Positions 5,949-36,082 of a stretch of DNA of 64,000 bases are shown here, one piece after another. The translations under genes were made by a program, and so were the position numbers. Under the pieces are notes generated by a model. It saw only the letters and a program-made list of their open reading frames with translations. It was not told the DNA's origin and ran no database searches. Position 1 is the first letter of the stretch, and each line of letters begins with the position of its first letter. The stretch comes from Akkermansia muciniphila (lineage in GTDB: Bacteria > Verrucomicrobiota > Verrucomicrobiia > Limisphaerales > UBA9464), in the NCBI GenBank assembly GCA_945898055.1, contig CAMDGV010000002.1:41666-105665 (forward strand). Reading direction: 5' to 3'.

Positions 5949-6958
5949 TGACCGGTTGGCTGCGTTTTGGGTGCGGGGTGCCGCATTACCGGTTGGCACG
6001 CATGCAGAAGTCTCTGGGTGTCCCGTTGCCGGAGTCCACGCAATGGGAGGCGATGCTGCCAGTGGCGCAGGCGGCGGAACCGGTTTTTCGAGAATTGATC
6101 CGTCAAGCCGCGCAAGTCTCGGTGCTGTACGTGGACGACACCACGATGCGGGTGCGAGAAATGCGCTCCAAAGGAGGAAGCGTAATCGATCCAAAACGCA
6201 CTGGCACCTTCACCACCGCGGTCGTGGGGGAATTGGGTCGGCAAACGATGATCCTCTACTTCACCGGCTGGAAACATGCTGGGGAGAACCTCACCGATGT
6301 CCTCCGGCAGCGGGAGGCCGGCCTAGAGCCACCGATCCTGATGTGCGATGCGTTGTCGCGAAACGTCCCTAAGGAATTCCGGACCGTGCTCGCCAATTGC
6401 TTGGTTCACGGCCGGCGAGAATTTGTGGATAATCGCGAATGCTTCCGGGGCGAATGCCAGCATGTGCTGGAGCAATTGGCTGAAGTCTACCGGGTCGACG
6501 CCGAGGCGAAGGAGCGAAGTCTGAATCCGCTGGAGCGGTTGGCGCACCACCAGACCCACAGCGGACCGGTGATGGCCGGGCTTCAAAGCTGGATGGCCGA
6601 AGAGTTGGCCCAAAAGAGGACCGAGCCGAACTCGGGCTTGGGCTTGGCGATCCGGTATATGCAGAACCACTGGGAGGCGTTGACGCTATTTTTGCGGGTG
6701 GCCGGGGCCCCCCTGGACAACAACGTCGCCGAGCGGACGTTGAAGGCGGCGATCATGCACCGGAAAAACTCCATGGGTTATAAAACGGTCAACGGCGCGA
6801 AGGTGGGGGACATCTTCATGAGCCTGATCCACACCTGTCGGAGCAGCGGGGCCAACCCCTTCGAGTACCTGCTGGCGCTGGCGCGCAACCCGGAGGCGGT
6901 GGCCGCCCATCCTAGCGACTGGCTGCCGTGGAATTATCCAAAGCCATCCCGGGCGTAG
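5945..6958 (+). mobile_element. IS66-family transposase (TnpC) fragment lacking the N-terminal ~180-200 aa
   Basis: The ORF opens inside the conserved ...HYRLARMQKSLGVPLPESTQWEAM... (LYRQ-like) segment. It continues through the DDE region (VLYVDDTTMRV, LMCDA) to the IS66 C-terminal HTCRSSGANPFEYL. There is no zinc-finger or leucine-zipper N-terminus, and the fragment abuts the pabB stop codon. Confidence 0.8.
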
Positions 6959-12922: not shown

Positions 12923-12930
12923 TGGTTACC

Positions 12931-16056: not shown

Positions 16057-18074
16057 ATGCCCCCCTTTTTTCTGTGGACAGGGAAGGCGGCAGGGCCGAG
16101 CACAGTCTTTGCGCCAAAGTCCAACCTAGAACATTGGGCATGGAAAGCTCCTCTTCGTCCCACACTTCCTGCGACTCACGATAACCGCAGGCCTAGCACA
16201 ACTATTGATCGTTTTATTATAGAAAAATTAGAATCAGAAGGAGTTAACCCTTCCCCAGAAGCCGGTCGGATTACCCTACTACGAAGGATCCACTTTGATC
16301 TCACCGGGCTCCCACCCACTCCCGAGGAAAGGGATCGTTTTGTTGCCGACCGTTCGTCATCGGCATGGTTACGCACGGTGGATGAACTTTTGGCTTCACA
16401 CCATTTTGGTGAGCGTTGGGGACGGCATTGGCTCGATGCGGCACGCTACGCGGACTCCGACGGCTTTGAAAAAGACAAGCCACGACTGCCACGATTTGTC
16501 TGGGCGTATCGCGATTGGGTTGTGAACGCCTTAAACAACGATCTTCCTTATGATCAATTTATCTTGGAACAAATCGCTGGTGATCAACTAACGGCAGCGA
16601 CTGATTCGCAACGGATCGCCACCGGTTTCCTCCGAAATGCGATGTTGAACGAAGAAGGCGGAGCGGATCCGGAACAGTTTAGGACAGAGGGACTCATTGA
16701 TCGAATGGACTGTATTGGGAAGGCAGTCTTGGGAGTTACAATCCAGTGTGCCCAATGTCATAACCATAAATTTGCCCCCATTTCCTAGGAGGAATAGTAC
16801 CGTCTTTTTGCCTTTCTCAATAACGATCACGAGTCTTCGATGACCGCCTACACACCGAGTGAATAACAACGGCGCGATAGTTTGTCGCGTTAAGTGCGCG
16901 AGATCGAAGAGGGGTTGCGTCGTGCGCTTCCTGATTGGGAGAAATCGATGGTCACTTGGGAAGACACCGGACGCGGGAATCAACCGGCGTGGACCGTGGT
17001 GCGGTTAACTTATCACGGCGAGAATGGGGAACGATTCTACTACTATGAGGATGGATCGATTCGTGCTGCCAGTTATGCACCGACGCAATGGACAGCGCAC
17101 TTTGAGGTCACGAATTTACTGCCTTCGATTGGGGCTTTCCGGCTTGAGCAATTAACCGATCCCAACTTGCCGGCAGGAGGTCCCGGGCGATCCGTGTTGG
17201 GGATGGCTGCTCTCACCGAATTTAAAGTAGAAGCCGAAGATTTAGCCGTGCCGACCAATCGAGTTACGGTGAACTTTTTACGGGCGACAACGGATTTTGA
17301 GAATGTGGAGAAGCCTTTAGAATCGGAGTTTGACGATAAATCAGATTAAAAGCGGACTTATGGGCCTGTGACCTCTGCAATCGACGGAAAAGTGACCACG
17401 GCATGGGGAATTGACGCTGGCCCTGGGCGACGCAATCAGTCTCGAAAAGCTATTTTTGTCGGGGATAAACCGGTCCTTTTCTCTGCTGGAATGCGTTTAA
17501 AGATTGAGTTGAGTCAAAATCATGGAGGGTGGAACTCTGATGATTTGCAGTCCCATAATCTGGGGCGCTTTCGGATTTCGGTAACGCCTACCACCGAAGT
17601 GGTGGCAGACCCATTACCCGCAGGGATACGTCACTGTATTGAGAACATTCCAAGAGACCAACGAACACCCGCGCAGGTTGGCGCAATTTTCAGCTATTGG
17701 CGCACCCTAGAGCCTGAGTTTAAGGAGGCCAATGCGCGTCTAGAAGCCCTCTGGAAACAGTGGCCGGACTGGACCCCTTTGCTTATTTTTCTCGCCGTAC
17801 CGGCAGCGGTCCGGATGAAAAACGGAAGCCTACTTGCCTCTTTAAGCGGGGTGACTGGCTCAAACCGGATCACGAAGTTATCTTTGGCACACCTGCCGTT
17901 CTGCATCCCTTGCCCGCGGATGGTGATGATTCTCGTCTGTCTTTAGCTCGTTGGCTCACCGATCCCCTTTCTCCCACCGCCGCGCGTGTCGCGGTCAATC
18001 GTCTCTGGCAACACTACTTCGGGATTGGATTGGTCGAAACCTCTGAAGACTTTGGTGTCCAATCCGCCAAACCT
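16057..18074 (+). pseudogene. Decayed DUF1549/DUF1553 paralog with in-frame stops and a frameshift, 3'-truncated
   Basis: Homology runs across four ORF pieces (16057-16788, 16894-17349, 17368-17946, 17760-18074). The first piece ends ...TIQCAQCHNHKFAPIS*EE*YRLFAFLNNDHE. The last ends ...VNRLWQHYFGIGLVETSEDFGVQSAKP at 18074, where the intact paralogs continue (T/S)HP(E/D)LLDWLA. Confidence 0.85.
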
Positions 18075-18317
18075 CAGGGCCTGGGAATAATAATCGTCGT
18101 CGTACACGCGGGCCATCTGGAGGCTGACGAAGGGGGCGGCGTGGGCCTCATTGCGGGCGTGGAGCAGACGTGTGGCGTCGTCGTTATTTTTGGTGCCGAG
18201 GGACTGGTGACGGCCGCTCTCGGTGTCCTCGCACCAGAAAGTTTTCCCGCGCCGGAAGAATCGGAATTTTGGCTTCATAACCGGTTTGGTTACAAAGCGT
18301 GGGGCCATTGACCTCAC
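18075..18317 (-). pseudogene. Tyrosine-recombinase (phage-type integrase) N-terminal stub of no more than ~80 aa
   Basis: (MRS)MAPRFVTKPVMKPKFRFFRRGKTFWCEDTESGRHQSLGTKNNDDATRLLHARNEAHAAPFVSLQMARVY... matches the pattern I recall for PVC integrase N-termini: KPKFRLFRR..g.fy.ed..tgkq.SLgT.d...A..ll.AkNEA. The rest of the 124-aa ORF is antisense to the DUF1553 pseudogene. No catalytic domain is present. Confidence 0.5.
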
Positions 18318-19006
18318 CCCCGTTAACGAGTATGCCGCAGGTACATCCGAGTATGCCTCAGGGGTTCGGGAGTAGGCCGTTTACTGACGTTTTTACTGAA
18401 AGTTAACGGTATTTTGGAGGTTGAGCCTCGCAAAACTCTCGAAAACAATAGGAAAACTGATTGGAGGCGAGGGTCGGAATCGGCCAAGGAAATCCAAAGA
18501 ACACCACGAAAATACCCAATGTTTATGGACCTTACAACCACCTTCTGAAACATTCCACTACCTTCCGTTAGATGCCAGATACTGACGATTTTACTGACGG
18601 TGGTTCGCGCTGGTTCGATAAGCCCGTTCACCCCTCTCTGCGGTGACTTCTGAGTCGCTTTTCAGCGCCAGCAGAACTGTCCGAGATGCTCGTCGAAATC
18701 TTGATACGGACCTACAGAATCCGCTTTTCCAAAAGAGCCAATCGACATCGCTATGGAAATTAGGTCGAAATGCAAGACTTGTTGCTCCGAAAACCACGCT
18801 GGATTCCGGTGAATTCCGCTGGAAAATAAACCTTTTTTACAGACTCACTCCTTGTCGGAGGTTTTCAGGATTCCTGCCAACATCTCTCGATGCAACTGCT
18901 GTCCGGCTTCAAGTGGGCTTTAGGCCGGTCGCGTCCAGTGGGCGGATCTGCTCTCTCGGTTGAGCCCTAGGAACTTTCATCCAAATGGCCTGTAACTGGG
19001 GGTGAC

Positions 19007-19261
19007 TCACCGTTGGGCGCACCTCAGTTCCACTCGAAACTTTGGGCTTATCGGGTCTGTCCCCATTTTTTCTTCGGTCACACCTACCTTGACATCCAAG
19101 CCTGGCTGCACTTTAGCTTTAGCATTTACAGCAGCATCTTCTCCCGCCTCCAGCGAAGTCTGCATCGCCGCGACCATTTTTTGCTTCAACAAATCCAGCG
19201 CCCCCTCGGTGGCAGACTTCTGCCGAGGATTCCGTCGCCCAGCGGGAGTTGTCCGGCGCAT
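19007..19261 (-). CDS. Hypothetical 84-aa protein, co-oriented with and 21 nt downstream of csb2
   Basis: The evidence is the ORF only: MRRTTPAGRRNPRQKSATEGALDLLKQKMVAAMQTSLEAGEDAAVNAKAK... I recognise no motif. Confidence 0.3.
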   Translation of the reverse strand: MRRTTPAGRRNPRQKSATEGALDLLKQKMVAAMQTSLEAGEDAAVNAKAKVQPGLDVKVGVTEEKMGTDPISPKFRVELRCAQR

Positions 19262-19282
19262 GGAAGCGTGCCACTCGCGAAC

Positions 19283-20866
19283 CTACGCGCTGGCAAGCCC
19301 GCTCTCAGAGGGAACAAAGAGGCCGAGGCCAAAGTGGGCACCGTAGCCTAGTGCGAATGGACCTGGGCGTTGATCAGGAAAGGTGATGGTGAACACTGCC
19401 CCGCTGTCGCGGCCGCGGCATCCTGCTCCGTTTTTGCGTCCGGTTTGAAATTGCAATGAGCGCAGGCTGCGTTCACCGAATTGATACGGGCGCTCCCTCT
19501 CGTGGATCTGCTGGATTTTGGCATCCGCACCGTGCCCATGCAGGGCGAGCAGTCGCAGCAGGTCGTGAGCGGCGGAGCCATTTTGCCAGCCATTATCCGC
19601 GTCTATTTTCGGCCTGCCATCGCGGAATGTTTTGGCGTATCGGGTGGACACGAAGGGCGTGGCGGAGCGCCAGATCTTCGCCGGGCGGACAAGCGCGCAG
19701 TCCGCGAAATCACCGAGCTGGCCGATGCCTTGGAGGACGAGGCGAATATCATGTCCGCCGTGGCCCCAGACTTTGTTGAGTCGGCGCAGCGCGAGGCAGG
19801 CTTCTTCATCGAAGCCCATCTCGGCCCAGATGGTGATGTGAGTGACTGAGTCGCGCGGCCCATTTGCTTCGCAGAAAATGTGTGCGTGCTGATGCTGGGC
19901 AGCGAGCGGTTTGCCATTCGCATCGAGGCCAGTGAAAACGGATGCGCGGCCCTTGCCTTGGTCAGACCATTTGCAGAGTGCATCATGCACGCGGTCGCCG
20001 ATGGAAATCGCCTGCGTGATGCTCGGCGCGACGGTGCTGGTGATGGCGTAGCGGGCTACGGTGAGCAGCGGGCCTGTGCGTGCAGGACGCGGGCGGGGCG
20101 CGGGAGCGAAGGCATTTTCCGGGCGGGTGTAGTTCACGAAGGCCGCGCCGGGCGGGAGATTCCAGCCCGCAGCTTGCAGGTCGCCCGTATCGGCGTGGAG
20201 TGCGGCGAAGAGGTCGTCCGGCAGCTTGGGCAACTTCCTCCTTCGCTCGGCGGGTGTGAGTTTTGGGTCGAGGGCGGCTTCCGCCTTCGCCATGAAGTCA
20301 TCGCGCCATTCGTCGTAGGCAGTCGGGAGCATCGGAGCCAGCAGGCTGACAAGTTCAGTTTTTTGCGGAAGTGATGTGCCTTCCGCGAGAGGCGTGGCAT
20401 TAGCCTCAATGGTTGTGATGCCATCGAGCACACGCGCTTCCACGAGGCTTTCCGCTCTCCCGAAGTAGCCGATGCGATTAGCGAGAATGCGCAGGGCGTC
20501 GAGTTCCGCTGGCGTCAACGCAACGTCCCACGCGACCAGAATCGATCCGTTTTCCGGGAGTTGGATGAAGGTATCGAATACCTTGGTGGTCTTCTCATTT
20601 TTCCCTTCGTTAAACGGCAGGTAGTGCCGCGTGTGGCTGGTGCTAGCGCGGGGCAGGCGGAAGCTCGGCGGCTGACTGAGCGCGTTCACCAGAGAGCGCA
20701 CAGTTTCTTCCGGGATTTCGCGTGCTTTCAGATACCACGTCGCGATGAGTGCGCGGACGATGCGCCACGGTGCAGGCGGCCATTCGACAGCTCCTTCATT
20801 GACGTGACGCCCCCACGGTGTCGCGTGGTACCGGCCAGCCGGGAAGCTGAGTTCGAGGACGGTCAT
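19283..20866 (-). CDS. csb2: Type I-G (I-U) Csb2, a Cas5-Cas6 fusion-type protein
   Basis: The track ORF is 19283-21079. The conserved N-terminus MTVLELSFPAGRYHATPWGRHVNEGAVEWPPAPWRIVRAL begins at the ATG at 20866, 5 nt after the csb1 stop. This matches the Csb2 pattern (..grY.At.......EWPP.P.Rl..AL). Confidence 0.85.
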   Translation of the reverse strand: MTVLELSFPAGRYHATPWGRHVNEGAVEWPPAPWRIVRALIATWYLKAREIPEETVRSLVNALSQPPSFRLPRASTSHTRHYLPFNEGKNEKTTKVFDTFIQLPENGSILVAWDVALTPAELDALRILANRIGYFGRAESLVEARVLDGITTIEANATPLAEGTSLPQKTELVSLLAPMLPTAYDEWRDDFMAKAEAALDPKLTPAERRRKLPKLPDDLFAALHADTGDLQAAGWNLPPGAAFVNYTRPENAFAPAPRPRPARTGPLLTVARYAITSTVAPSITQAISIGDRVHDALCKWSDQGKGRASVFTGLDANGKPLAAQHQHAHIFCEANGPRDSVTHITIWAEMGFDEEACLALRRLNKVWGHGGHDIRLVLQGIGQLGDFADCALVRPAKIWRSATPFVSTRYAKTFRDGRPKIDADNGWQNGSAAHDLLRLLALHGHGADAKIQQIHERERPYQFGERSLRSLQFQTGRKNGAGCRGRDSGAVFTITFPDQRPGPFALGYGAHFGLGLFVPSESGLASA

Positions 20867-20871
20867 AGAGG

Positions 20872-24350
<3,479 letters not shown>

Positions 24351-24359
24351 GGCAGAATG

Positions 24360-26867
24360 TCAGTTGGTGGTGGCTGCATTTACGGCGGACGCGCGGGCGT
24401 CGGCGGCACGCAGGATTGTTTCGAGATAAGAGAGGCGGAATGGGCCAAGGCGGTCGCGGAGGGCAACGGCGCGGGCAAGCCAAGAAGGGCCGTGCTCACC
24501 CGCGCCCATTTTCATAAAGCTGAGGTCGAGTGTGACAGCGGGTGTAGTAATGTCGCCGATAGCGACGGCTGGGAGTGTGTCGCCGTGCCAGATGCCGCGA
24601 GCGAAGAGTCGCTCCTCGCCGCCTGGCACCGGTTCGTTTGGCAGCGAGCGAATGGAGAGACGGACTTTCCCGTGGTGTGCCGCAATGAGATAAGCAACGA
24701 GGTCACGCTCGGGAGCATCGGGCGGCCCGGCAAGCAACCAGGCCAGAGCGGAAGCGAGTTCGTGGCGGAAGCCGGGGCGTTTGCATTTGCCGTTTTTGTT
24801 TTTCGATTTTGCCCAAAGATTGCCTTCACGGGGCGGCGCCTCGCCGTCGCAAAGCATTCTCTGAAACTCGCCGTGCGCCTTTCCGACATCGTGCCACAGC
24901 GCGGCGATGCGGAGTGTCGCGGTGTCTGCCGCTGAAAGCAGGATGAAGGCGGAAATGGAGTCGGTTTCCTCGATGACCTTTCCTGTGTGCTCGGCGAGCG
25001 ACTGCCAATCTCTCGTGAAACTGCTCCCGTTTCCATCATGAGAATCGGCACTCTCGTCCGGCGGACGGTGAATGGTGAGCGATTGAGGTTTCGGCTCACC
25101 GGTCCAGCCGAGGCTGTCCTCGTAGCCACCGCAGTCCGCAGCGACGAGATAGACAGCGCCGGGACGAGCCCTCTCTGCCTTCTTCCATTCTTTTTCGAGT
25201 GGGTTCCACTGCCATGCACGGGGCTTCTTTTTCGGATCGAGGAACTTCGCTGCATCGCCGATGGAAACGCGGCAGAGTTCTCCCCGCATGGGCTGCGGTT
25301 CGCTCGTTCTAGGAGATTCGTTCTCCGCGATGTCGCGCCAGAAGAACTGCACATCGTTGTCGTCGCTGTCGCGGATGTAGCGGGAGATGTCGAGATCCTG
25401 CCCGCAGATGTCCGGCGTCGTATCGAACAAATCCACGAGGTCGCGGCGGCGGATGACGGGACGGACAACGGGGATTTCCTGGACGATGATTTCGCGCAAA
25501 GTGCGCGGGCAGGCATCAGTGAGCTTCTGAAGTTCCTCGCTGGCTTTGGTAAGTTCGTCCTTTGTGTAAGGCAGGAGCAGTTCGCCTTTCGCGTCTGGCT
25601 CAATGTTCACCCAGAGAATTTCCGCGTCTGAAAACTCCGCGCGGCGGTTGCAGCGGCCCATGCGCTGCACGAGCGAAGACCACGGCGCGAGTTCGGTGAT
25701 GAGCAGCCGCGCCGAGACATCCACGCCAGCCTCGACGGCCTGAGTGGCGATGACGATGCGGTCGCCGGTTCCGAAAAGAAGCGCCTCGTGCTTCGCTCGG
25801 TCTTTCTGGCGGAAGCGCGAGTGGATCAGGGCGACGCGCTCCGGGGCGCAGAGTGGCGGCAGTGTTTGCTTGCCTTTCTTTTCTCCCGTTGTGAGTGCTT
25901 CAAAAATCGCCCTCGCCCGCGACACGCGGTTCACGATGACAAGCGTGAGCGTGCCGGATGAATGCGGATTTTCGAGAAGCGCGAGGTGGCGTTTGGCGAC
26001 AAGCTCCGCGAGTTGCTTCGCGTAGTCGTCTTTCGTTGTGGTGCTGAGCACGAGCGGTGCCGGTGCGTCTTTGAGCGGTGCTGGCGACAGCCTCTTTTTC
26101 GCGGTGATTAGTTCATGCGGCCTGCCGCTGGATTCCTCGGCGGGATTGAGTTTGAGGGGGAGCCAGCCGCCATCCGGAACCGGATGATCCACGGTGGCGA
26201 ACCGCTTCTGCTCCAGCGTGGCGCTCATCCACCAAGTCGGGCAGATCCCGTGCGTTCGCCATTCCTCGCGAGCACGGAAGCCGTCGAGCTGTGCGCTTGT
26301 CTCCACGCCCACGCCCATCAACTGCGTCTCATCCATCACCCAAAGCGCGTCATTATTCAGCAAGCCGAAGTGCATCGGCCAGCGGTAGCGGCTCATGCCG
26401 TAGCCGCGATTGAGGGCGCGGGAGAGGAGCATGTCCTGCGTACCGATGAGGATGGCTTCGCGCTCAGGGTGGAGATCCCATTCGCCCGCGTCTTCGCCGC
26501 CCATGAGGATGTGAAGGCCGACTTTTCCGTCATGCGACTCCTTCTCGTCCCAAAGTAGGCCGTGGGCTTTGAGCCATTTCTCCACTTCATCGCGCGTCTG
26601 CTCTACGAGCGTCCGCATCGGCAGGCAGTAGACGAGACGGCGAGGCCAGGCAGGGTCTTTAAGGACGACGCGATTCCACATCCACGCGAGGACGACGGCT
26701 GCGGTCTTGCCGAGGCCGGTGGGGATGTTGATCAATCGCGAGTGGCATGCCGCGCCGGTATTCGGTAGATCAGTCTCACCAAGCGCGAGGCGGCATTGAT
26801 AGTCGTATGGCGAGTGGCTTCCGCCGGTAGCTGTTTTGAAAAACGCTGTGTAATTGGTGGCGCTCAT
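24360..26867 (-). CDS. cas3: Type I-G Cas3 helicase-nuclease with a C-terminal HD domain
   Basis: 835 aa. Helicase motif I PTGLGKT, motif II VMDETQL and SAT. The C-terminal HD domain reads LWHDVGKAHGEFQ ... FRHELASA ... AAHHGK. A C-terminal HD is the known I-U/I-G arrangement. Confidence 0.9.
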   Translation of the reverse strand: MSATNYTAFFKTATGGSHSPYDYQCRLALGETDLPNTGAACHSRLINIPTGLGKTAAVVLAWMWNRVVLKDPAWPRRLVYCLPMRTLVEQTRDEVEKWLKAHGLLWDEKESHDGKVGLHILMGGEDAGEWDLHPEREAILIGTQDMLLSRALNRGYGMSRYRWPMHFGLLNNDALWVMDETQLMGVGVETSAQLDGFRAREEWRTHGICPTWWMSATLEQKRFATVDHPVPDGGWLPLKLNPAEESSGRPHELITAKKRLSPAPLKDAPAPLVLSTTTKDDYAKQLAELVAKRHLALLENPHSSGTLTLVIVNRVSRARAIFEALTTGEKKGKQTLPPLCAPERVALIHSRFRQKDRAKHEALLFGTGDRIVIATQAVEAGVDVSARLLITELAPWSSLVQRMGRCNRRAEFSDAEILWVNIEPDAKGELLLPYTKDELTKASEELQKLTDACPRTLREIIVQEIPVVRPVIRRRDLVDLFDTTPDICGQDLDISRYIRDSDDNDVQFFWRDIAENESPRTSEPQPMRGELCRVSIGDAAKFLDPKKKPRAWQWNPLEKEWKKAERARPGAVYLVAADCGGYEDSLGWTGEPKPQSLTIHRPPDESADSHDGNGSSFTRDWQSLAEHTGKVIEETDSISAFILLSAADTATLRIAALWHDVGKAHGEFQRMLCDGEAPPREGNLWAKSKNKNGKCKRPGFRHELASALAWLLAGPPDAPERDLVAYLIAAHHGKVRLSIRSLPNEPVPGGEERLFARGIWHGDTLPAVAIGDITTPAVTLDLSFMKMGAGEHGPSWLARAVALRDRLGPFRLSYLETILRAADARASAVNAATTN

Positions 26868-26891
26868 AGTTTCGGGGAGTCGAAGAATTGC

Positions 26892-27437
26892 TCAGGCTTC
26901 CGGCGTTTCGGCGTGAGCGAGGCGGTCGCGCCAGATGTCCACGAGCGGTTGGAGGTCGCGACGGTCGGCAGCTTCCAGCGCGGTGAAGTATTCGGCGCGA
27001 CCGGATTCGGTTTGCGGGGCGAGTTCCACGCGGGGCAGATCGAGGGCGTAATTGCGCATGAGCACGGGGACTTGGAACTGCTGCGGAGAATCCAACCGTC
27101 CCACCGTCACGACGATGTCGCGCCCGCGGCCCGCCCATTCCGGCACGAGTTCGCCCGCGATTCGGCGGTGCAAGTCGAGCGACAGATGTTCGTCGAGCGG
27201 CGCGGCGGCAAAGGTCTCCTGCCCGGAGAGGGCGAGTTCGACGAGGGCGACCCGCTCGGTCAGCAGTGAGGCTAGTTCTGCGTAGCGGGTGGCGTTGCTT
27301 GGGCGAGTATCTCGCGAACCTTCTCCACCGGCACCGGTTCCCTCTCGAAGGCCATGCTCTGGGCCACATCGAGCGGGAGCGCCTGCCAGCGCTGGAGGTT
27401 GTCCTGCCAAGTGATGGTTGGGAGTGCCGTCGGACAT
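26892..27437 (-). pseudogene. Fic/DOC-like (mobile-mystery-protein-B-like) gene remnant, frameshifted and lacking the catalytic motif
   Basis: The C-terminal part reads LSLDLHRRIAGELVPEWAGRGRDIVV...GRAEYFTALEAADRRDLQPLVDIW. It resembles Fic flanks (LH..lf..v..WAG.yR ... Y..AL.aAd.gd..PL..f), but no HPFx(D/E)GNGR motif exists in any frame. After MSDGTP the annotated frame is low-complexity. The +1 frame gives the protein-like TITWQDNLQRWQALPLDVAQSMAFEREPVPVEKVREILAQ, which implies two frameshifts. Confidence 0.35.
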
Positions 27438-27775
27438 GGCTATTTTGCGAGTGGCGAGGTACGAGCGGCGGAGGTTTTGGAGGTGGGCGAGGCGGAATCG
27501 GCCGAGGAGGCCAATGGGAAACCACGAAGAGCCAAAAGATTCCTCAAAAATCATACCGAGAATGATGCCCTTTCTTAATCGTAATTCAGCCTTAATAATT
27601 TCTCCGATAAGGTAAATCATTAATTTTACCGCACTGAGTCCGCAAGAACCGCTAGACGCGGACCCTCCGGTGCCGAAAATGGGGAAGTCGGAGAATGCAT
27701 TCATTTGCGCGAGACTGGCGGAGGGGGACGGACAATGGCGGTCCTACCCACCCGATGGGTAAAAAAATACTGCGC

Positions 27776-28275
27776 TTACCCAGCCGCCAGAATGGCCTCC
27801 GCAGAGCGCCGAATCCTCCGCTTGAGTTCCGCGGGCTCCAGCACCCGCGGGTGAGCGCCCAGCTCAATATTCAGCGTTCAATTTCCTCCAGCCTGCCGAG
27901 TTCGAGCCGCAGCTCAATCGTCCCGCCAGGGAGTTGCTTGATTTTCTGCGAGGGATGCCGGTTCCGTTCGCCGACCAAGCGCGCGGCGAAATCATCGAAT
28001 GCAATCCAGACCTTGAAACGACCATTCGTGGAGAACACGCCGAGGCTCTCGCTCAGATGCTTGGTGATGGAGAAATCCGGCGGCCTGCGAAACCGCATCC
28101 GCGAGAGCTCAAAGGTGTGCAGTTGCGAACGGACGAGGTAGTGGGCAAAAAGAGACCACTGCTGGCCGATGCACGCGAGATAGTAGGGCTGCACACGCCT
28201 GGCCTCGTAACCCGAACTGCCCAATTATCGATATTCGAAGGCGAGTTTTTCCCCCGTCAAAAAGCAATTTCCTAT
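27776..28275 (-). pseudogene. WYL-domain transcriptional regulator pseudogene (WYL plus C-terminal extension domain)
   Basis: The read-through translation is ...GEKLAFEYR*LGSSGYEARRVQPYYLACIGQQWSLFAHYLVRSQLHTFELSRMRFRRPPDFS...FKVWIAFDDFAARLVGERNRHPSQKIKQLPGGTIELRLELGRLEEIER*ILSW/(frameshift)/GAHPRVLEPAELKRRIRRSAEAILAAG*. It carries a TAA at 28225-28227, a TGA at 27871-27873 where W is expected, and one frameshift near 27860. No convincing HTH was found upstream. Confidence 0.7.
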
Positions 28276-28663
28276 CAGTTTCGTTTCAAGACACGCTAAG
28301 ACTTTTCGCGATGGGCGACCCAAGATAAGTTCCAATGGTTGGCAGCAAGGGTCTAGCCCGGAAGACCTACTCCGTTTGCTGGCCCTCAACCTAAAGTGGC
28401 AGGGAGCGAGGATTCGCCGGCAAATTCCGGAACGGGACCTTCCATTCCAGTTCGGCAACCGCACTGCGATCTCTACAGTTTCAGAGCATTCGTCACAAAG
28501 GAATGGGGAGTCGTGGACACGATAGAGGTGCTTCATTTGTCATCGAGTTTCCCGAACCCGTGAACGGGCCTACTGCTGTAGGATATGCAGCTCTTTTTGG
28601 CCTCGATCTATTCGTCCCTGTTTTGAATCTATCCTCCGCAACCAACATCGGGGAAACCCTAGA

Positions 28664-31000
28664 TTGATTGTTTTATCGGCTGTTTGGGTGTATCTCGAGA
28701 ACGTGCCCACAAAATTCAAGAAACGCCCTCGTGAAAACGACGGCGGACTCGGCCCTCTCTTTGACAGGTTGGGGACAAATGAATCCCAAACAGAAAAAAT
28801 TCTCACCGAACGGGATTTATCACTGGCCGCTAGCCCAAAACCGGCGCCAACCACGACTCCTCCACCGCTATCGATTGACCCCACTCCAAAGCCAGTCGAC
28901 TCAAGATTCGTGACTCTGCCCAGTCATCTAGGTCTGCCGAATTCCAATAATATTCAATCGTCAACCAACGATGTCAGGGGTGAAAACTGCCAACCAATTA
29001 ATACTGCTGGTCAAGGTAAACCCATCTTCGAACGGGCCGTTGAAACCCTAAGGAACGAGGGAGTGGGCCGCCCTAAACCAGATACCACCGCCGTCCCAAC
29101 GGGAGACTCTCGATTACCGGCGCGGATGCTCAACGAGTTTGTCTATTGTCCTCGCCTTTTTTACTACGAACACGTCGAGGGGATCTTCGTTGAAAGCGTG
29201 GACACAATTCGAGGCTCTGCAATACACAAGAGGGTTGATTCCGGTTCAGGGGCCCTTCCGGCGCCAGCAACTCTCAGTCAGTCAGCGACTGAAACAAATG
29301 GGGGGCCCAACAATGCGGAGGCAGGAGAGGCCTCAACCATTCATTCGAGAAGTGTTACTCTAGGCTCAGAACGTCTCGGAGTAATCGCAAAACTTGACTT
29401 GGTCGAAATCGACGGATTCAAGGAAGACCGAGGAGCTAGCACCCAGGAAATAGCCCGAGCAGTCGTCCCGGTTGATTACAAACTAGGACGACCACGAGAA
29501 GGAGCGGAGGCCAACGAACTCTGGCCAACCGACCAAATGCAACTTGGGGTGCAGATTCTGGTGCTCCGCGAAAATGGTTATACGTGCTCTGAGGGCGTAA
29601 TCTATTATCGAGAAACGCGGCAGCGAGTTCGCTTTGTTTTGGACCAGGAACGGGAGGCATGGGTCCTCGCTCAGATCGAGGCAGCGCGCGCCACCCTGCG
29701 CGGCCCGATCCCTCCGCCATTGGTGGCCTCTCCCAAGTGTCGTCGATGCTCGCTTGCACCTGTCTGTCTGCCGGACGAAACACGCTTGCTCGGCCGTCAA
29801 CCAACCACCATCAATCGCCAAGAAACGCTGCGGGCGCCAGTTCCAGCAGTAAATAGTCCCGGGGAGGCGCTGGACCCTCAGGATGAGGAGAATGAGCAGG
29901 CTACATCGGCAAAGGCGGAGCCGCCTCGTCGATTGATGGCAGCAAGGGACGATAAGCGGGCGTTGTACCTCAATACACCAGGACTTCGGGTGGGGCGCAA
30001 AGACGAAACCATAACCGTCAAAGACGGAGACCAACCAGTAGAAGAAGTCCGCCTGATGGACGTTTCGCATGTAGCCCTGTTCGGTAATATTCAGATCAGC
30101 ACCCAAGCTGTCCAAGCGCTCTGCGATGCCGAGATTCCAGTCACCTACTTCTCCGGAGGTGGGTGGTTCTATGGCATTACCCAAGGCCACGGATTGAAAA
30201 ACGTGTTCCTGCGAATCGAGCAGTTTCGACTCGCCGGCAACAAAGAAATGTGTCTGGGCCTGGCTCGCGCCTTCGTCCATGGAAAGATCCGGAACCACCG
30301 CACGTTACTTATGCGCAACCACGCAGAAGCCCCGACAACCGCTCTCGCCCGACTCAAGTCTGCAGCCACAAATGCATTGAAGGCCGCTAGCCTCGAGGAA
30401 TTACTTGGTGTTGAAGGGGCCGCCGCCGCCGCCTACTTCGAGCAATTTCAAGGGATGCTCCGTCCAGCCGACCCACACGATGATGACATTCCGGGGGCGG
30501 AGGAGATTGGCCCACGGCCAAAACCCCTTTCGTTTGAATTTCATGCTCGGCACCGTCGCCCACCCACTGACCCGGTTAATGCACTCCTTTCCCTAGCCTA
30601 TTCCGTTTTATCCAAAGATTGCACGATCGCCGCTGCCGCCGTCGGATTCGACCCCTATGTTGGATTCTACCACCAACCTCGGTTCGGTCGCCCGGCCTTG
30701 GCCCTCGACCTTATGGAAGAATTTCGCCCACTGATCGCTGAGAGCGTCGTTTTAACTGTAATCAATAACCGGATGGTGACACCGGACAGCTTTGTCTCAG
30801 CAGGTCAGGCCGTAAACCTCACCCCAGCAGGCCGCAAGAAATTTTTCCTCGCCTACGAACAACGTATGAGCAGCCTGCTCACCCACCCATTATTTGATTA
30901 CAAGGTTAGCTACCGTCGCGCTCTGGAACTACAAGCACGCATCTTGGCCAAAGCGTTGACCGGCGAGATCCCTGAGTACATTCCCCTTCTGACCCGCTAA
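28664..31000 (+). CDS. cas4/cas1: Cas4-Cas1 fusion (Cas4g/Cas1g), the type I-G adaptation protein
   Basis: The Cas4 RecB-like part has MLNEFVYCPRLFYYEH, DYKLGRP and CRRCSLAPVCLPDE (the four-cysteine set). The Cas1 part runs ALYLNTPGLRVGRKDETITV... to ...ALELQARILAKAL. Conserved domains begin near 29110, and an alternative ATG lies at 29126. The first ~150 aa are Pro-rich and unrecognisable. Confidence 0.88.
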   Translation: MIVLSAVWVYLENVPTKFKKRPRENDGGLGPLFDRLGTNESQTEKILTERDLSLAASPKPAPTTTPPPLSIDPTPKPVDSRFVTLPSHLGLPNSNNIQSSTNDVRGENCQPINTAGQGKPIFERAVETLRNEGVGRPKPDTTAVPTGDSRLPARMLNEFVYCPRLFYYEHVEGIFVESVDTIRGSAIHKRVDSGSGALPAPATLSQSATETNGGPNNAEAGEASTIHSRSVTLGSERLGVIAKLDLVEIDGFKEDRGASTQEIARAVVPVDYKLGRPREGAEANELWPTDQMQLGVQILVLRENGYTCSEGVIYYRETRQRVRFVLDQEREAWVLAQIEAARATLRGPIPPPLVASPKCRRCSLAPVCLPDETRLLGRQPTTINRQETLRAPVPAVNSPGEALDPQDEENEQATSAKAEPPRRLMAARDDKRALYLNTPGLRVGRKDETITVKDGDQPVEEVRLMDVSHVALFGNIQISTQAVQALCDAEIPVTYFSGGGWFYGITQGHGLKNVFLRIEQFRLAGNKEMCLGLARAFVHGKIRNHRTLLMRNHAEAPTTALARLKSAATNALKAASLEELLGVEGAAAAAYFEQFQGMLRPADPHDDDIPGAEEIGPRPKPLSFEFHARHRRPPTDPVNALLSLAYSVLSKDCTIAAAAVGFDPYVGFYHQPRFGRPALALDLMEEFRPLIAESVVLTVINNRMVTPDSFVSAGQAVNLTPAGRKKFFLAYEQRMSSLLTHPLFDYKVSYRRALELQARILAKALTGEIPEYIPLLTR

Positions 31001-31013
31001 ATGATGGACCATC

Positions 31014-31304
31014 ATGAGGACCACCTACCTAGTCTGTTACGATATAGCTGACCCTAAACGCCTCCGCCGAGTCTTCAGGACGTGCAAGAATTTCGGAGAC
31101 CACCTCCAATTCTCTATATTCGAGTGCGACCTTAATCCGTCTGAAAAAGCCCAACTTGAAACGTCGTTGCGCGAGACTATCAACGGCTCTGAAGACCAAA
31201 TCATTTTCGTCACTCTGGGCCCCACTGAGGGAAGAGGGTCTCGGGTCATCTCCTCGATCGGGATGCCTTATGTCACCATGAATGCCCCGTGTTTTGTATT
31301 CTAA
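31014..31304 (+). CDS. cas2: CRISPR-associated endoribonuclease Cas2
   Basis: 96 aa, MRTTYLVCYDIADPKRLRRVFRTCKNFGDHLQFSIFECDL... This is the typical Cas2 ferredoxin-fold N-terminus. It lies 13 nt after cas4/cas1. Confidence 0.9.
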   Translation: MRTTYLVCYDIADPKRLRRVFRTCKNFGDHLQFSIFECDLNPSEKAQLETSLRETINGSEDQIIFVTLGPTEGRGSRVISSIGMPYVTMNAPCFVF

Positions 31305-31536
31305 TGCGACTTGCCAGATAGACCCAATCGGTAGTATTTCCACCGAGGCTCTTTGAAATCTGAATCACGCGAGCGCCTAGGTGATCGATAATCCTCGGGA
31401 GGCGCTCGCATGCCGTAAATCATTGTCGAAATACGAACTTTTTTGTTTCGATTAGCCCATTGGTAGTTCCCTAAAACAGAACCGCTCGCATAATCGATGA
31501 AATCTCTCCGCTTTAGTGGCCTCTAAAGTAGGTGCT
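31305..31536 (+). promoter_or_regulatory. Putative CRISPR leader between cas2 and the first repeat
   Basis: 232-bp non-coding spacer directly upstream of repeat 1. It is AT-enriched near the array (ACGAACTTTTTTGTTTCGATTAG...). It contains a perfect 10-bp inverted repeat GCGAGCGCCT (31369-31378) / AGGCGCTCGC (31400-31409). The repeat orientation (3' end GTTGAAGY) supports plus-strand transcription. Confidence 0.6.
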
Positions 31537-34500
31537 ATCTCCGCGCCCTCAAAAGCGCGGCCCCGTTGAAGTACGCTTATTGCCGAGGTCATGGCACAGA
31601 CCGACCGTATCTCCGCGCCCTCAAAAGCGCGGCCCCGTTGAAGTTCGAAATCCAGCGGAGAGCCAGAAGGAGGCGCATACATCTCCGCGCCCTCAAAAGC
31701 GCGGCCCCGTTGAAGTCACAGTCAAGCCCTCAATTCCTTTGATTTTCTTTTGATCTCCGCGCCCTCAAAAGCGCGGCCCCGTTGAAGTATCGGGATCGCC
31801 ACATCAGCAACCGCAACAGGAGTCAGATCTCCGCGCCCTCAAAAGCGCGGCCCCGTTGAAGTAAGTCTGAACGTGATCGTAGTCTCTGGCGTCAGTTGGA
31901 TCTCCGCGCCCTCAAAAGCGCGGCCCCGTTGAAGTCACGCTATTCGACTGGCACTGCGCCGCCGAGGAATGATCTCCGCGCCCTCAAAAGCGCGGCCCCG
32001 TTGAAGTCTCGATCATGCAGGGCCCGTATAGCCCGCACGGCAATATCTCCGCGCCCTCAAAAGCGCGGCCCCGTTGAAGTAACGGCTGAGTTGAGGCGTT
32101 CTGCGACTGATTACGGCGATCTCCGCGCCCTCAAAAGCGCGGCCCCGTTGAAGTTTGTTCATCGGGGTCGCAGCGTCCGTCTTTAAAGATTATCTCCGCG
32201 CCCTCAAAAGCGCGGCCCCGTTGAAGTCGGGCGGGCCTGTATCTATGGAGTCGCTAGCCGAGGCATCTCCGCGCCCTCAAAAGCGCGGCCCCGTTGAAGT
32301 CCGTTGTCTCAGTTGAACGGTGGTGGTCAATGGTGTGAATCTCCGCGCCCTCAAAAGCGCGGCCCCGTTGAAGTATCACGGATTCCATCCAGTTCATAAT
32401 TATCGATGCGATCTCCGCGCCCTCAAAAGCGCGGCCCCGTTGAAGTTCGTGCAAAGAGGCCACCATTGGCTTTGTGAGCACCATCTCCGCGCCCTCAAAA
32501 GCGCGGCCCCGTTGAAGTGGTGTGGGCTCGGTGCGAGAGTACTCTGGAATTTACGATCTCCGCGCCCTCAAAAGCGCGGCCCCGTTGAAGTGAGACTTGT
32601 TTCATTCTGTTTTTTGGCTCGGGTTTTATCTCCGCGCCCTCAAAAGCGCGGCCCCGTTGAAGTACGAAGTGATAGCAATGGACCCACCTTGGGCCTACGA
32701 TCTCCGCGCCCTCAAAAGCGCGGCCCCGTTGAAGTGGGGTCCGCTGAGACTGCTGGTTTTCCTCCAAGTCCAGTCATCGCCGCGCCCTCAAAAGCGCGGC
32801 CCCGTTGAAGTAGCGACGATGAAGCCGCTGTGTTGTCTGCCCTATGGGATCTCCGCGCCCTCAAAAGCGCGGCCCCGTTGAAGTGACGAGGGTGCGATTT
32901 CCACGGCTGAGTCGGCAATGATCTCCGCGCCCTCAAAAGCGCGGCCCCGTTGAAGTACCGACACCAGGACGATGAGCCAATAGGGTGAGGGTCATCTCCG
33001 CGCCCTCAAAAGCGCGGCCCCGTTGAAGTGCGACGCAGAATTTACTCGCATACTTGAACGCCATATCTCCGCGCCCTCAAAAGCGCGGCCCCGTTGAAGT
33101 GTCCTGGCTCATTTTTGCTGGAGCAACAAATGCCCGATCTCCGCGCCCTCAAAAGCGCGGCCCCGTTGAAGTAATTTGCAATCGTTTCCAATCAGGTCCA
33201 TTCTTTGGGTATCTCCGCGCCCTCAAAAGCGCGGCCCCGTTGAAGTCAGTTGGTCCGCAATTGTCCCCCATGATTTACCGCTCATCTCCGCGCCCTCAAA
33301 AGCGCGGCCCCGTTGAAGTGCAGTGCTGTTTCGCGGGATGTATTTGTCCCCATAGATCTCCGCGCCCTCAAAAGCGCGGCCCCGTTGAAGTTTGCAGCCT
33401 ACAAATCAAGCGTCGAAGCCTACAACGCATCTCCGCGCCCTCAAAAGCGCGGCCCCGTTGAAGTTCATCCCCCAGTATGAGGTTTGCTGCTCGCACAACA
33501 CATCTCCGCGCCCTCAAAAGCGCGGCCCCGTTGAAGTGTGCCACAACTCCAGCAATCAAATGATCTCTGTAGTGTATCTCCGCGCCCTCAAAAGCGCGGC
33601 CCCGTTGAAGTACTGGGAGCGAGAATCCTTCGCGAAGAAGTTTGATACATCTCCGCGCCCTCAAAAGCGCGGCCCCGTTGAAGTGTTTGGGTTGGCATAA
33701 TGGTCGTAGCTCATATATTCATCTCCGCGCCCTCAAAAGCGCGGCCCCGTTGAAGTCACTTGTCCAATAGGAGATCGGCCATTCGGCGGTTAATCTCCGC
33801 GCCCTCAAAAGCGCGGCCCCGTTGAAGCCTGGCATGCGTCCGGTGCATGAGTTGCAGTCTATGCGATCTCCGCGCCCTCAAAAGCGCGGCCCCGTTGAAG
33901 CATTGGATGCTCAAAATTACCGTCTCACCTTCAACCCATCTCCGCGCCCTCAAAAGCGCGGCCCCGTTGAAGCCGGTAAATGCAGTCGAGAACTCCTCAT
34001 CGTTTTTAGATCTCCGCGCCCTCAAAAGCGCGGCCCCGTTGAAGCAATTTATCGCGTGAAAACTATAGACGATCTCAATCTATCTCCGCGCCCTCAAAAG
34101 CGCGGCCCCGTTGAAGCTGGTTGCGGCCTCCCCTCCCCTGCCGACGGGGGGCGAGATCTCCGCGCCCTCAAAAGCGCGGCCCCGTTGAAGCTCTAGGTGC
34201 CATATAATTGAATGCGTTGAAACCGACACATCTCCGCGCCCTCAAAAGCGCGGCCCCGTTGAAGCCCATTAGCTCATGCCCCTAATCGTGTTAGGCTCTC
34301 GATCTCCGCGCCCTCAAAAGCGCGGCCCCGTTGAAGCTAACTCTCGTGTCTGTTATCATTGAGGCTTCTTTCATCTCCGCGCCCTCAAAAGCGCGGCCCC
34401 GTTGAAGCACCTATCCCGTCGTGGGTTCACCCGCTCGGAGATAAATCTCCGCGCCCTCAAAAGCGCGGCCCCGTTGAAGCTAGGCTAAGACTCCGCATCG

Positions 34501-36082
34501 TTGTTCGTGGAGTTCGTCATCTCCGCGCCCTCAAAAGCGCGGCCCCGTTGAAGCGCTAGGCGGGCCGCTTGGATTGCGGCTAATTCTGCGGATCTCCGCG
34601 CCCTCAAAAGCGCGGCCCCGTTGAAGCACGGCGTGCAAGAAATTATTGAAAACATCTACTGCCCATCTCCGCGCCCTCAAAAGCGCGGCCCCGTTGAAGC
34701 ATACCTTGCGGGGAAACTCCGCGGAAAAGCCAAGCAGATCTCCGCGCCCTCAAAAGCGCGGCCCCGTTGAAGCTTTCAAGCATCAGTTGACACAATTCAG
34801 GAATTGAGCAATCTCCGCGCCCTCAAAAGCGCGGCCCCGTTGAAGCACCGCTTCTTTAGAACCTTGGGCCGGAGCTTCTCGTATCTCCGCGCCCTCAAAA
34901 GCGCGGCCCCGTTGAAGCGAAGCCAGCCCCATTGCTGGTTAGCTGGTACGTTGGCATCTCCGCGCCCTCAAAAGCGCGGCCCCGTTGAAGCATGGAGAAG
35001 GACGTCTGGGAGAAGAACGGATGGACCTATCTCCGCGCCCTCAAAAGCGCGGCCCCGTTGAAGCAATTAGGACAAGTTGTTTAGCAATGCCGTTTGCAAG
35101 TTATCTCCGCGCCCTCAAAAGCGCGGCCCCGTTGAAGCAAAAAAGTAGGGTAGAGATAGCGGGGAGGGGTATCGAATCTCCGCGCCCTCAAAAGCGCGGC
35201 CCCGTTGAAGCCGCTCACGCCATCAGGTGATGGCCTCAGCGGCCCGCAGATCTCCGCGCCCTCAAAAGCGCGGCCCCGTTGAAGCGGGGCCGCAGCGGCT
35301 GATACTACTCAAGCGGAAGTATATCTCCGCGCCCTCAAAAGCGCGGCCCCGTTGAAGCTCAACGAGGCTCGTATAGAGTTCTCGGGCCGCTGAATATCTC
35401 CGCGCCCTCAAAAGCGCGGCCCCGTTGAAGCCAAACTCATTAGCCCAGCGAGATGCTGGTTTACCGGATCTCCGCGCCCTCAAAAGCGCGGCCCCGTTGA
35501 AGCAACCGAAAAGCCTCCATCCCGTGTTAGGAGATGGAGATCTCCGCGCCCTCAAAAGCGCGGCCCCGTTGAAGCAGGGTGAGCAACTCATTGCGGGCCG
35601 CTACTAAATTTATCTCCGCGCCCTCAAAAGCGCGGCCCCGTTGAAGCTATGTTCATTGTTTTTTATTTTCCCCTTCAACCGAAATCTCCGCGCCCTCAAA
35701 AGCGCGGCCCCGTTGAAGCACGATGCCGGGAGACGGAGACCGAGACGCCGTTTGCGAATCTCCGCGCCCTCAAAAGCGCGGCCCCGTTGAAGCCCAGTCT
35801 CGCGGCTATCACGTTGTCTTCGTCCAAACTATCTCCGCGCCCTCAAAAGCGCGGCCCCGTTGAAGCCCATCGTAGCTAACCAGTCGCGGTTAGCGGACGT
35901 TATCTCCGCGCCCTCAAAAGCGCGGCCCCGTTGAAGCGCGGTGTACGGAGAGTCATTCAGTGCAGCGGTTGCACATCTCCGCGCCCTCAAAAGCGCGGCC
36001 CCGTTGAAGCGATGCTCCAGCGTCCCTCATAATTTGGTCAACCTCAATCTCCGCGCCCTCAAAAGCGCGGCCCCGTTGAAGC
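31537..36082 (+). CRISPR. CRISPR array of 63 repeats (36 nt) and 62 spacers (35-40 nt)
   Basis: I located every repeat by hand. The consensus is ATCTCCGCGCCCTCAAAAGCGCGGCCCCGTTGAAGY, with an internal 6-bp stem CCGCGC/GCGCGG and loop CCTCAAAA. The first repeat is 31537-31572 and the last is 36047-36082. Repeats 1-31 end in T and repeats 32-63 end in C. Repeat 18 (32776-32811) has T4G. All spacers look unique by eye. Confidence 0.97.

Follow-up and report, generated by a model that had tools for sequence, protein, structure and literature searches.

The DNA analysed here, a stretch of 64,000 nucleotides (nt) from contig CAMDGV010000002.1 (positions 41,666 to 105,665 of the forward strand; called the window in what follows), comes from an uncultured, metagenome-derived genome of Verrucomicrobiota type and carries a CRISPR-Cas locus of type I-G. 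The effector genes of this locus, cas3g, csx17 (cas8g), csb1 (cas7g) and csb2, lie on the minus strand, and the adaptation genes (a cas4/cas1 fusion and cas2), together with the leader and the array, lie on the plus strand and face away from them. This layout, and the separate promoters that it calls for, had been recognized in an initial annotation, which had also delimited the locus exactly, from the stop codon of csb2 (19283) to the end of the array (36082). The locus is almost certainly a chimera of two collinear I-G lineages: the end of a second csb2 gene, the start of a second cas4/cas1 gene and the discordant identities of the two modules lead to the conclusion that its halves descend from two different collinear I-G loci. 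The whole is best explained, and we hold this view with good but not full confidence, as a working type I-G system put together from these two lineages, and the sequence suggests that the hybrid is probably functional.

The relatives of the two halves (related loci are designated by L numbers) are different. Those of the adaptation lineage are L001/L002 and those of the effector lineage are L003, L092/L093 and L005/L006, all of them collinear I-G loci of Verrucomicrobiota. Positions 28287-31565 of the window are 89.4% identical in DNA to L001 over 3290 nt, in an alignment that begins inside the L001 csb2 gene, and the closest relative of the Cas4/Cas1 protein is also found there (93% amino acid identity over the conserved core and 89% overall), as is a Cas2 protein 99% identical to that of the window. 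L001 is arranged collinearly as cas3-csx17-csb1-csb2-cas4/1-cas2, and its effector proteins are only 58-71% identical to those of the window, the DNA of the effector block being just 66-68% identical. The opposite is found for the effector lineage: positions 19306-23607 are 88.4% identical in DNA to L003 and positions 19077-22673 are 91.4% identical to L092, whereas the Cas4/Cas1 proteins of L003 and L092 are only 59-61% identical to that of the window. At the protein level, Csb2 and Csb1 are both 92% identical to those of L092 and Csx17 is 89% identical to that of L003 outside an insertion described below. The closest Csb2 relatives were found in the collinear loci L003, L005/L006 and L092/L093; the remaining members of the Csb2 cluster are about 92-95% identical, and the two that were inspected (L092 and L099) belong to native collinear loci.

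Such discordance is not restricted to the window. The identity of the effector block to L003, L005 and L092 forms a mosaic (74-94%), with the N-terminal half of Csx17 swapped between relatives, and Cas4/Cas1 similarity does not track effector similarity, as in L012, where Cas4/Cas1 is 71% identical and Csx17 and Csb2 only 33-35%. Recombination among these I-G loci is frequent. Divergence of Csx17 between these relatives is also far greater in the N-terminal half than in the C-terminal portion of about 260 residues, suggesting recombination or a diversifying pressure inside the gene. In the window, this protein contains in addition a lysine-rich insertion of about 115 amino acids (residues ~131-245, encoded around 23616-23960) that is absent from the proteins of L003, L092, L005 and L001.

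The two ends of the effector block are cut inside genes, and the remnants left there allow its origin to be followed gene by gene (Table 1). L092 has the order WYL regulator, two small open reading frames (ORFs), Fic, Bro-N, cas3, csx17, csb1, csb2, cas4/1, cas2 and array, and the minus strand of the window reproduces this order, minus Bro-N, from residue 156 of the WYL protein to codon 34 of cas4/cas1. At the left end, the start of a cas4/cas1 gene that belongs to the effector lineage itself follows csb2 after the native csb2-cas4/cas1 intergenic region (19178-19282), and the blastn homology to L092, L093, L005 and L006 ends at 19077 every time. At the other end, positions 27309-28247 are 81.6% identical to L092 by blastn and represent the native upstream region of the effector operon. 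The WYL gene located there has lost the 155 N-terminal residues, including the helix-turn-helix domain, and the L092 WYL protein (which matches the PADLOC models of Cas-associated WYL proteins) aligns to the rest in two frames by tblastn (residues 156-308 and 306-335). The Fic gene is inactivated by an in-frame deletion of 53 amino acids that takes out the HPFRDFNGR core; the 270-amino acid ORF at 26892-27704 overstates the gene and has no Pfam match, whereas the intact homologues are annotated as PF02661. The deletion lies apparently between two microhomologies that encode LDL. A Fic gene is present just upstream of cas3 in several Verrucomicrobiota I-G loci (L005 517-1269, L092, L009 and L043), and between cas3 and csx17 in L077; in L092 (1226-4282) it is preceded by the Cas-associated WYL regulator and followed by the Bro-N gene.

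Beyond the WYL remnant the sequence changes to that of the adaptation lineage. The end of a second csb2 gene is found directly upstream of cas4/cas1, which is the canonical position and orientation of csb2. By tblastn it matches the last ~115 residues (28280-28619) in two frames, with 54-60% amino acid identity to the intact Csb2, and its DNA is 88.5% identical to the 3' end of the L001 csb2 gene, whereas the intact Csb2 encoded on the minus strand is only 58% identical to the L001 protein. With these identities, an origin of the stub as a recent copy of the minus-strand gene is very unlikely. The change of frame is due to a 2-nt deletion near 28463 that is also present in L098, but not in L097 or L001; since the stub is still in frame in L097 and the deletion is common to the window and L098, the frameshift is later than the truncation. 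The sequence at the junction itself is unique, contains no shared repeat and is bordered by a truncated gene on either side. The initial annotation had described the 1.8 kb between the start of cas3 (26867) and the long cas4/cas1 ORF (28664) as a region of decayed genes; its size and the decay are correct, but it is not anonymous debris, as it consists of csb2, WYL and Fic remnants of two lineages.

Table 1. Features of the type I-G locus and of the junction between its two blocks (window coordinates)
Feature	Coordinates	Strand	Evidence
cas4/cas1 stub, first 34 codons, effector lineage's own; left end of block B	19076..19177	-	tblastn of L092 residues 1-34, 65% identity
csb2 (Cas5-Cas6 fusion, crRNA-processing subunit), 527 aa, intact	19283..20866	-	TIGR02165, PADLOC Cas56g
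csb1 / cas7g (backbone subunit), 312 aa, intact	20872..21810	-	TIGR02570, PF09617, PADLOC Cas7g
csx17 / cas8g (large subunit), 847 aa, intact	21807..24350	-	TIGR04113, PADLOC Cas8g
cas3g, helicase with C-terminal HD nuclease domain, 835 aa, intact	24360..26867	-	TIGR02621, TIGR01596, PADLOC Cas3g
Inactivated Fic gene	26892..27180	-	Alignment with Fic proteins of L005 and L092
Homologues of the two small L092 ORFs between WYL and Fic	27290..27572	-	tblastn, o67 60%, o48 68%
WYL regulator stub, CRISPR-associated, frameshifted	27779..28299	-	Pfam WYL and WCX on a 117-aa ORF (27871-28224)
Junction of block B and block A, ~37 nt of filler matching neither parent-like sequence	28254..28290	.	Pairwise alignments with L092 and L001
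csb2 stub of the adaptation lineage, last ~113 codons	28291..28627	+	tblastn, alignment with L001
cas4g/cas1g fusion; conserved core 29126-31000 (624 aa)	28664..31000	+	NF049935
cas2, 96 aa	31014..31304	+	TIGR01573, PF09827, PADLOC Cas2g
Leader	31305..31536	+	Six-leader alignment; 79% identity to L001
CRISPR array, 63 repeats (36 nt), 62 unique spacers (35-40 nt)	31537..36082	+	Repeat detection in the window
aa, amino acids; crRNA, CRISPR RNA.

In the history that we propose, block A (28291-36082, plus strand) would be the remnant of one collinear locus, composed of the end of a csb2 pseudogene, cas4/cas1, cas2, the leader and the array, and block B (19076 to about 28253, minus strand) would be a 9.2-kb piece of another one, running from the middle of a WYL gene to codon 34 of cas4/cas1; illegitimate recombination would have brought the two together in a head-to-head arrangement, leaving about 37 nt of filler in between. 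The join could have been produced in one step, with incoming DNA taking the place of the original effector genes, or by complementary deletions in two neighbouring loci. In the second route two complete I-G loci with compatible repeats would have stood head to head, and afterwards one would have lost its effector genes and the other its adaptation genes and array. That both blocks end within genes, that block B retains its native upstream region and that I-G loci in these bacteria show a mosaic make-up and frequent recombination are all compatible with this course. Effector-lineage relatives are found beside genes of mobile elements (a large serine recombinase in L003, 1992-3638; DUF932, 395-1033, and Bro-N in L092), which suggests a possible arrival route for block B, and a second locus could thus have arrived next to the first. 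On the other hand, the route requires two independent deletions and a prior adjacency, two head-to-head I-G loci were seen in none of the 82 loci surveyed (see below), and nothing array-like or cas2-like is present to the left of 19076 in the window, so that we consider it a genuine possibility, but a somewhat doubtful one. Neither the left flank (18050-19080) nor the 800 nt upstream of the L001 cas3 gene gave any informative similarity.

How unusual the divergent layout is was determined in a survey of relatives, in which species-representative genomes were scanned and the 80 best of at least 581 Cas4/Cas1 relatives, nearly all from Verrucomicrobiota, were taken; with loci obtained by other routes, 82 non-redundant loci were classified by tblastn and iterated hidden Markov models, a survey that reaches relatives with at least ~59% Cas4/Cas1 identity. 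At least two effector genes were found upstream of cas4/cas1 on the same strand in 51 of the 82 loci, and effector genes downstream on the same strand in three; in ten only a same-strand csb2 was detected (mostly on short contigs), one (L083) had no effector gene within at least 6 kb upstream, one (L062) had mixed strands and the upstream sequence of the remaining 16 was too short to classify. A clean divergent layout was seen in none of the 82, so the layout is rare in this clade, and the architecture had rightly been called unusual. The prototype locus of Geobacter sulfurreducens (GSU0051-0054 and GSU0057-0058) is collinear too. L062 (1-12672 of DATDAL010000075.1, a Terrimicrobiaceae metagenome-assembled genome) is scrambled, with the helicase part of cas3 and csb2 on one strand and the HD part of cas3, a Cas3-extension gene, an IS1595 transposase and cas4/cas1 on the opposite one. 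The three loci with downstream effector genes on the same strand are L056, L072 and L076 (with the order csb1-csb2-cas3 in the last two), which means that the I-G gene order is not fixed in this clade.

The junction is not a recent accident of a single genome. The layout is present in contigs of three other ENA assemblies, which are 100%, 100% and 99.75% identical, and two more diverged loci, L097 (96.0%, from JGI) and L098 (97.7%, from Logan), both on short contigs, align to the window straight across the junction between the WYL and csb2 stubs. A junction-spanning pattern matched the window and six loci (L087, L088, L089, L096, L097 and L098, of which L087 and L096 are one contig), and had no match in the JGI metagenome contig collection. 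Because it is present in L097 and L098, the junction is older than the 2-4% of sequence divergence that separates them from the window. Comparison across this divergence reveals how the adaptation genes have evolved after the join: in the cas4/cas1 core the ratio of synonymous to nonsynonymous codon changes is 44:19 for L097 and 22:8 for L098, with substitutions at the first, second and third codon positions of 13/7/44 and 8/2/20, respectively, and cas2 behaves likewise. The cas4/cas1 gene is thus under purifying selection since the join. Its ORF (778 amino acids) includes a weakly constrained extension of about 150 amino acids, and 28664, 28688 and 29126 are candidate starts. This extension (28664-29125) is proline-rich, stays open with whole-codon insertions and deletions only in the window, L001, L097 and L098, and evolves in a near-neutral manner (synonymous to nonsynonymous changes of 9:8, 7:7 and 21:37); many relatives are annotated with 690-770 amino acids.

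All six cas genes of the hybrid are intact. Families were called with the curated cut-offs of NCBIfam, with PADLOC models as an independent call and with Pfam where models exist, and the assignment of the locus to subtype I-G in the initial annotation is borne out, as the six proteins score above the NCBIfam cut-offs with near full model coverage and PADLOC calls all six as 'g', with Pfam in agreement. Csb2 reaches 210.6 bits with TIGR02165 (cut-off 45; model positions 1-491 of 492) and 460 bits with PADLOC Cas56g; Csb1/Cas7g, 163 bits with TIGR02570 (cut-off 38) and 130 bits with PF09617; Csx17/Cas8g, 677.6 bits with TIGR04113 (cut-off 150; positions 2-715 of 718); and Cas3g, 784 bits with TIGR02621 (cut-off 400) and 865 bits with PADLOC at full-length coverage, its HD nuclease domain being indeed C-terminal (TIGR01596, residues 624-736 of 835). 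Cas4g/Cas1g scores 700.7 bits with NF049935 (cas4g_cas1g; cut-off 560), in a match that begins at residue 151, and Cas2 scores 42 bits with the generic Cas2 family (cut-off 24.5). The genes are as tightly packed as had been described, with overlaps and gaps that agree with the ORF list: csb1 and csx17 overlap by 4 nt, csx17 and cas3 are separated by 9 nt, cas4/cas1 and cas2 by 13 nt, and csb2 and csb1 by 5 nt if csb2 starts at M72. The csb2 ORF of 598 amino acids is too long for the gene, since the model begins at residue 72 (M72, 20866). The effector genes contain no internal stops, and change with respect to their relatives is dominated by the third codon position (31/13/74 for csb2 and 13/13/57 for csb1 compared with L092, and 130/113/304 for cas3 compared with L005), although this divergence from L092, L003 and L005 also takes in the time before the join. 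L005 (3759-4712) and L019 (3485-4375) have a gene for a HEAT-repeat protein between cas3 and csx17, and next to the Cas3 HD fragment of L062 a gene (6187-6801) matches the 'type I-G Cas3-extension family' of NCBIfam (NF049934); both genes are absent from the window.

The array is long and clean, as previously described, with 63 repeats, 62 unique spacers and a single internal nucleotide polymorphism. The 36-nt repeat is ATCTCCGCGCCCTCAAAAGCGCGGCCCCGTTGAAG[T/C], in which the last base is polar along the array: T in repeats 1-31, proximal to the leader, and C in repeats 32-63. The sole other deviation is found in repeat 18 (32777-32810), where position 4 has changed from T to G, so that 62 of the 63 repeats are identical apart from the polar position. 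C is the end base in the repeats recovered from relatives and in the first repeat of the junction-bearing L098. Given that the first repeat of L098 and the oldest 32 repeats of the window end in C, the change to T and the units that carry it would have arisen after the join; the C-to-T change in the window lineage thus probably post-dates it, with about 31 repeat-spacer units added subsequently. The repeat is predicted to fold into a 6-bp hairpin (stem region at positions 5-24), followed by CCCC and by the 8 nt GTTGAAG[T/C], a geometry that, read from the repeat sequence alone, fits cleavage 4 nt 3' of the stem and an 8-nt 5' handle in the CRISPR RNA (crRNA), of which the last base of the repeat is the last nucleotide. 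Between the A and B types, 7 of the 36 repeat positions are different, and all of these fall within the 5' end or the loop; both types have the same 6-bp stem and identical 3' 12 nt (CCCCGTTGAAGC). The leaders of both lineages (window, L001, L098, L003, L092 and L006) have in common a TTGA(A/C)AT block and GCGAGCG/CGCTCGC half-sites, which are three in number, with one at about 50 nt upstream of repeat 1; these conserved blocks are candidate promoter, integration or regulator sites.

By analogy with characterized I-G systems a working scheme can be proposed, in which expression of both modules, their cross-compatibility and interference activity are all inferred. The array would be transcribed from the leader, and the block-B Csb2 would cut the repeats 4 nt 3' of the hairpin, leaving an 8-nt 5' handle, GUUGAAG(U/C), and a 3' hairpin. 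Cas7g and Cas8g would then assemble on the crRNA, and Cas3g would degrade spacer-matching DNA with the correct protospacer adjacent motif (PAM), while the block-A Cas4/Cas1-Cas2 would insert further spacers next to the leader. Of the two modules, block B has retained the native region upstream of its operon, and block A would need a promoter located in the csb2 stub itself or downstream of it. Use of the A-type array by the block-B effector is plausible because the stem, the 3' 12 nt and the cut geometry are the same and the leader blocks are common to both lineages.

Several points weigh against a working hybrid. The whole array was compared by blastn with 50,697 phage and 72,556 plasmid records without any match, and spacers 1-3 had none in IMG/VR when every sixth position was treated as wild. 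No self-target was found within the window, where only chance matches of at most 16 nt occur. A TTN PAM has been reported for the Geobacter I-G system. As no protospacer was found here, no PAM was derived, and an agreement in PAM between the lineage-A Cas4/Cas1 and the lineage-B Cas8g is hypothetical. The cas4/cas1 gene is without its former upstream operon, and a scan for promoters and terminators in 26.7-31.6 kb stayed at the shuffle background (3 promoter sites compared with 2.1 expected). The decay of the WYL and Fic genes shows that the neighbourhood has been eroding. No diverged junction-bearing contig covering the effector genes was found, and selection after the join was examined for the adaptation genes only. 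The dating by ~31 spacers assumes that T spread by duplication at the leader end and draws on one contig end (L098), for which loss of the T block in the L098 lineage is a possible alternative. Finally, transcription, crRNA processing and interference are predicted here from sequence.

An alternative is that the locus has been decaying since the rearrangement, with an effector unable to use the crRNAs or with silent adaptation genes, the array being then a fossil and the genes not yet degraded. Three pseudogenes, those of WYL, Fic and csb2, located at the join, the lost operon promoter of cas4/cas1, with promoter-like sites not above background, and the lack of a spacer target in the phage and plasmid collections and, for three spacers, in IMG/VR agree with this explanation. 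Against it, the six genes are all full length, cas4/cas1 has accumulated 66 synonymous and 27 nonsynonymous changes (the sum for the junction-bearing L097 and L098, two comparisons that overlap), the junction has outlasted 2-4% of divergence, the repeats are identical in 62 of 63 copies apart from the polar position, and the derived T-type repeats occupy the leader-proximal half of the array, with L098, which bears the same junction, still having C. For these reasons we judge decay to be unlikely.

Going further than a hybrid that simply works, it could be imagined that the system was re-tuned after the swap: a non-cognate effector, 58-71% identical to the displaced one, would have been using for a long time the guides and PAMs of the other lineage, the loss of the WYL regulator and of the operon coupling would have rewired the expression of both halves, and the C-to-U change at the last position of the handle, carried by the 31 newest repeats, would have spread as a co-adaptation of the crRNA to the new effector. 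Taken as a whole, this proposal is rather improbable, and if true it would represent a natural experiment on which I-G parts are interchangeable.

For the origin of the layout, the initial annotation saw the interference operon as inverted relative to the adaptation module and the array. Under a simple inversion, the cas3-csb2 operon of a single ancestral collinear I-G locus would have been turned around where it stood, the genes in the gap being unrelated debris. The modules do face apart and jointly give exactly one complete gene set, but a simple inversion cannot yield a duplicate and divergent csb2 end, in canonical position and orientation, nor does it account for the second cas4/cas1 start behind the minus-strand csb2 or for a block A that is 89% identical in DNA to L001 next to an effector block at 66-68%, with the reverse for L003 and L092. 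With two stubs and discordant identities against it, this candidate was rejected and retains hardly any probability. An artefact, in which the assembler would have joined the I-G loci of two strains, could be suspected in a metagenome-derived source, as related I-G loci co-occur in such samples, but its probability is close to nil and it was rejected for practical purposes, since the same junction recurs elsewhere (in three other assemblies at 99.75-100% and in two contigs of different sources at 96-98%) and lies in unique sequence between truncated genes, not in a shared repeat.

With regard to the surroundings of the chimera, a DUF1549/DUF1553 (PSCyt2/PSD1) gene is apparently in fragments at 16057-18311 of the window, where the PSD1 match ends at model position 49 of 244, near 18080. 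These fragments adjoin intact PSCyt1-PSCyt2-PSD1 and DUF1501 genes (11468-15489), and about 1 kb without recognizable content precedes block B. A HEAT/cytochrome c gene is located to the right of the locus. Scans of the whole window with Rfam gathering thresholds and for tRNA genes gave nothing.

The comparison with characterized I-G systems indicates an otherwise ordinary locus. The window has the same six-gene set as the prototype systems of G. sulfurreducens and of Thioalkalivibrio sulfidiphilus (for the latter, Shangguan et al. 2022, PMC9638904), and likewise lacks a separate cas6 or cas11 among the cas genes of the locus. In T. sulfidiphilus, the Cas6 domain of Csb2 is the part that binds the hairpin, and the enzyme cleaves 4 nt 3' of the stem to give an 8-nt handle that is contacted by Cas7.1 alone (PMC9638904); the 36-nt repeat of the window has a matching geometry (hairpin, 4 nt and 8 nt), which would fit processing of this kind. 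Unlike the prototype, the window has its effector operon on the strand opposite to cas4/cas1-cas2 and the array, its halves are of different ancestry and its Cas8g has the extra insertion of ~115 amino acids. Among the sequence features of I-G systems that were tested, the window departs only from the usual collinear single-strand order (cas3-cas8g-cas7g-csb2-cas4/1-cas2-array), which is typical and not strictly defining. The same contrast holds with its nearest relatives: L001 resembles the window in the 3' end of csb2, cas4/1, cas2, the leader and the 28 visible nt of its first repeat (89% in DNA), and L092 and L003 in csb2, csb1 and part of csx17 (88-91%), L092 having also the same WYL gene, small ORFs and Fic, yet L001, L003, L092 and the others are single collinear loci with a cognate partner module, whereas in the window two lineages are brought together in opposite orientation and block B carries a stub at each end.

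What happened in the window corresponds to a process that has been described. Effector modules are exchanged in situ beside a fixed adaptation module and array, also where the variants involved belong to a single subtype (Koonin and Makarova 2019, PMC6452270), and the window is similar in that the adaptation module and the array were kept, the effectors are of other ancestry and the exchange took place within a subtype. Both discordant module identities and a physical trace of the displaced module were found. It goes beyond the described cases (PMC6452270) in the relics left behind (the csb2, cas4/cas1 and WYL stubs and the filler), in the inverted orientation of the new module and in a persistence that can be dated through strains that share the junction. 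It is, therefore, a known process, well documented here, and not a new system. Module exchange is usually inferred from conflicting gene trees, whereas here it is visible in the sequence: the stubs mark both breakpoints, close relatives of both parent loci can be identified, and several diverged strains that share the junction open the period after the swap to direct study, during which the adaptation genes were selected and the array probably kept growing. As an experimental candidate, which the initial annotation had seen in it, the locus is of limited value, coming from an uncultured source of Verrucomicrobiota type and having no spacer target found. For engineers of I-G systems it offers a testable point on the interchangeability of modules, as it suggests that effector and adaptation modules of I-G lineages about 40% apart in protein sequence can work together if the stem of the repeat and the handle are conserved.

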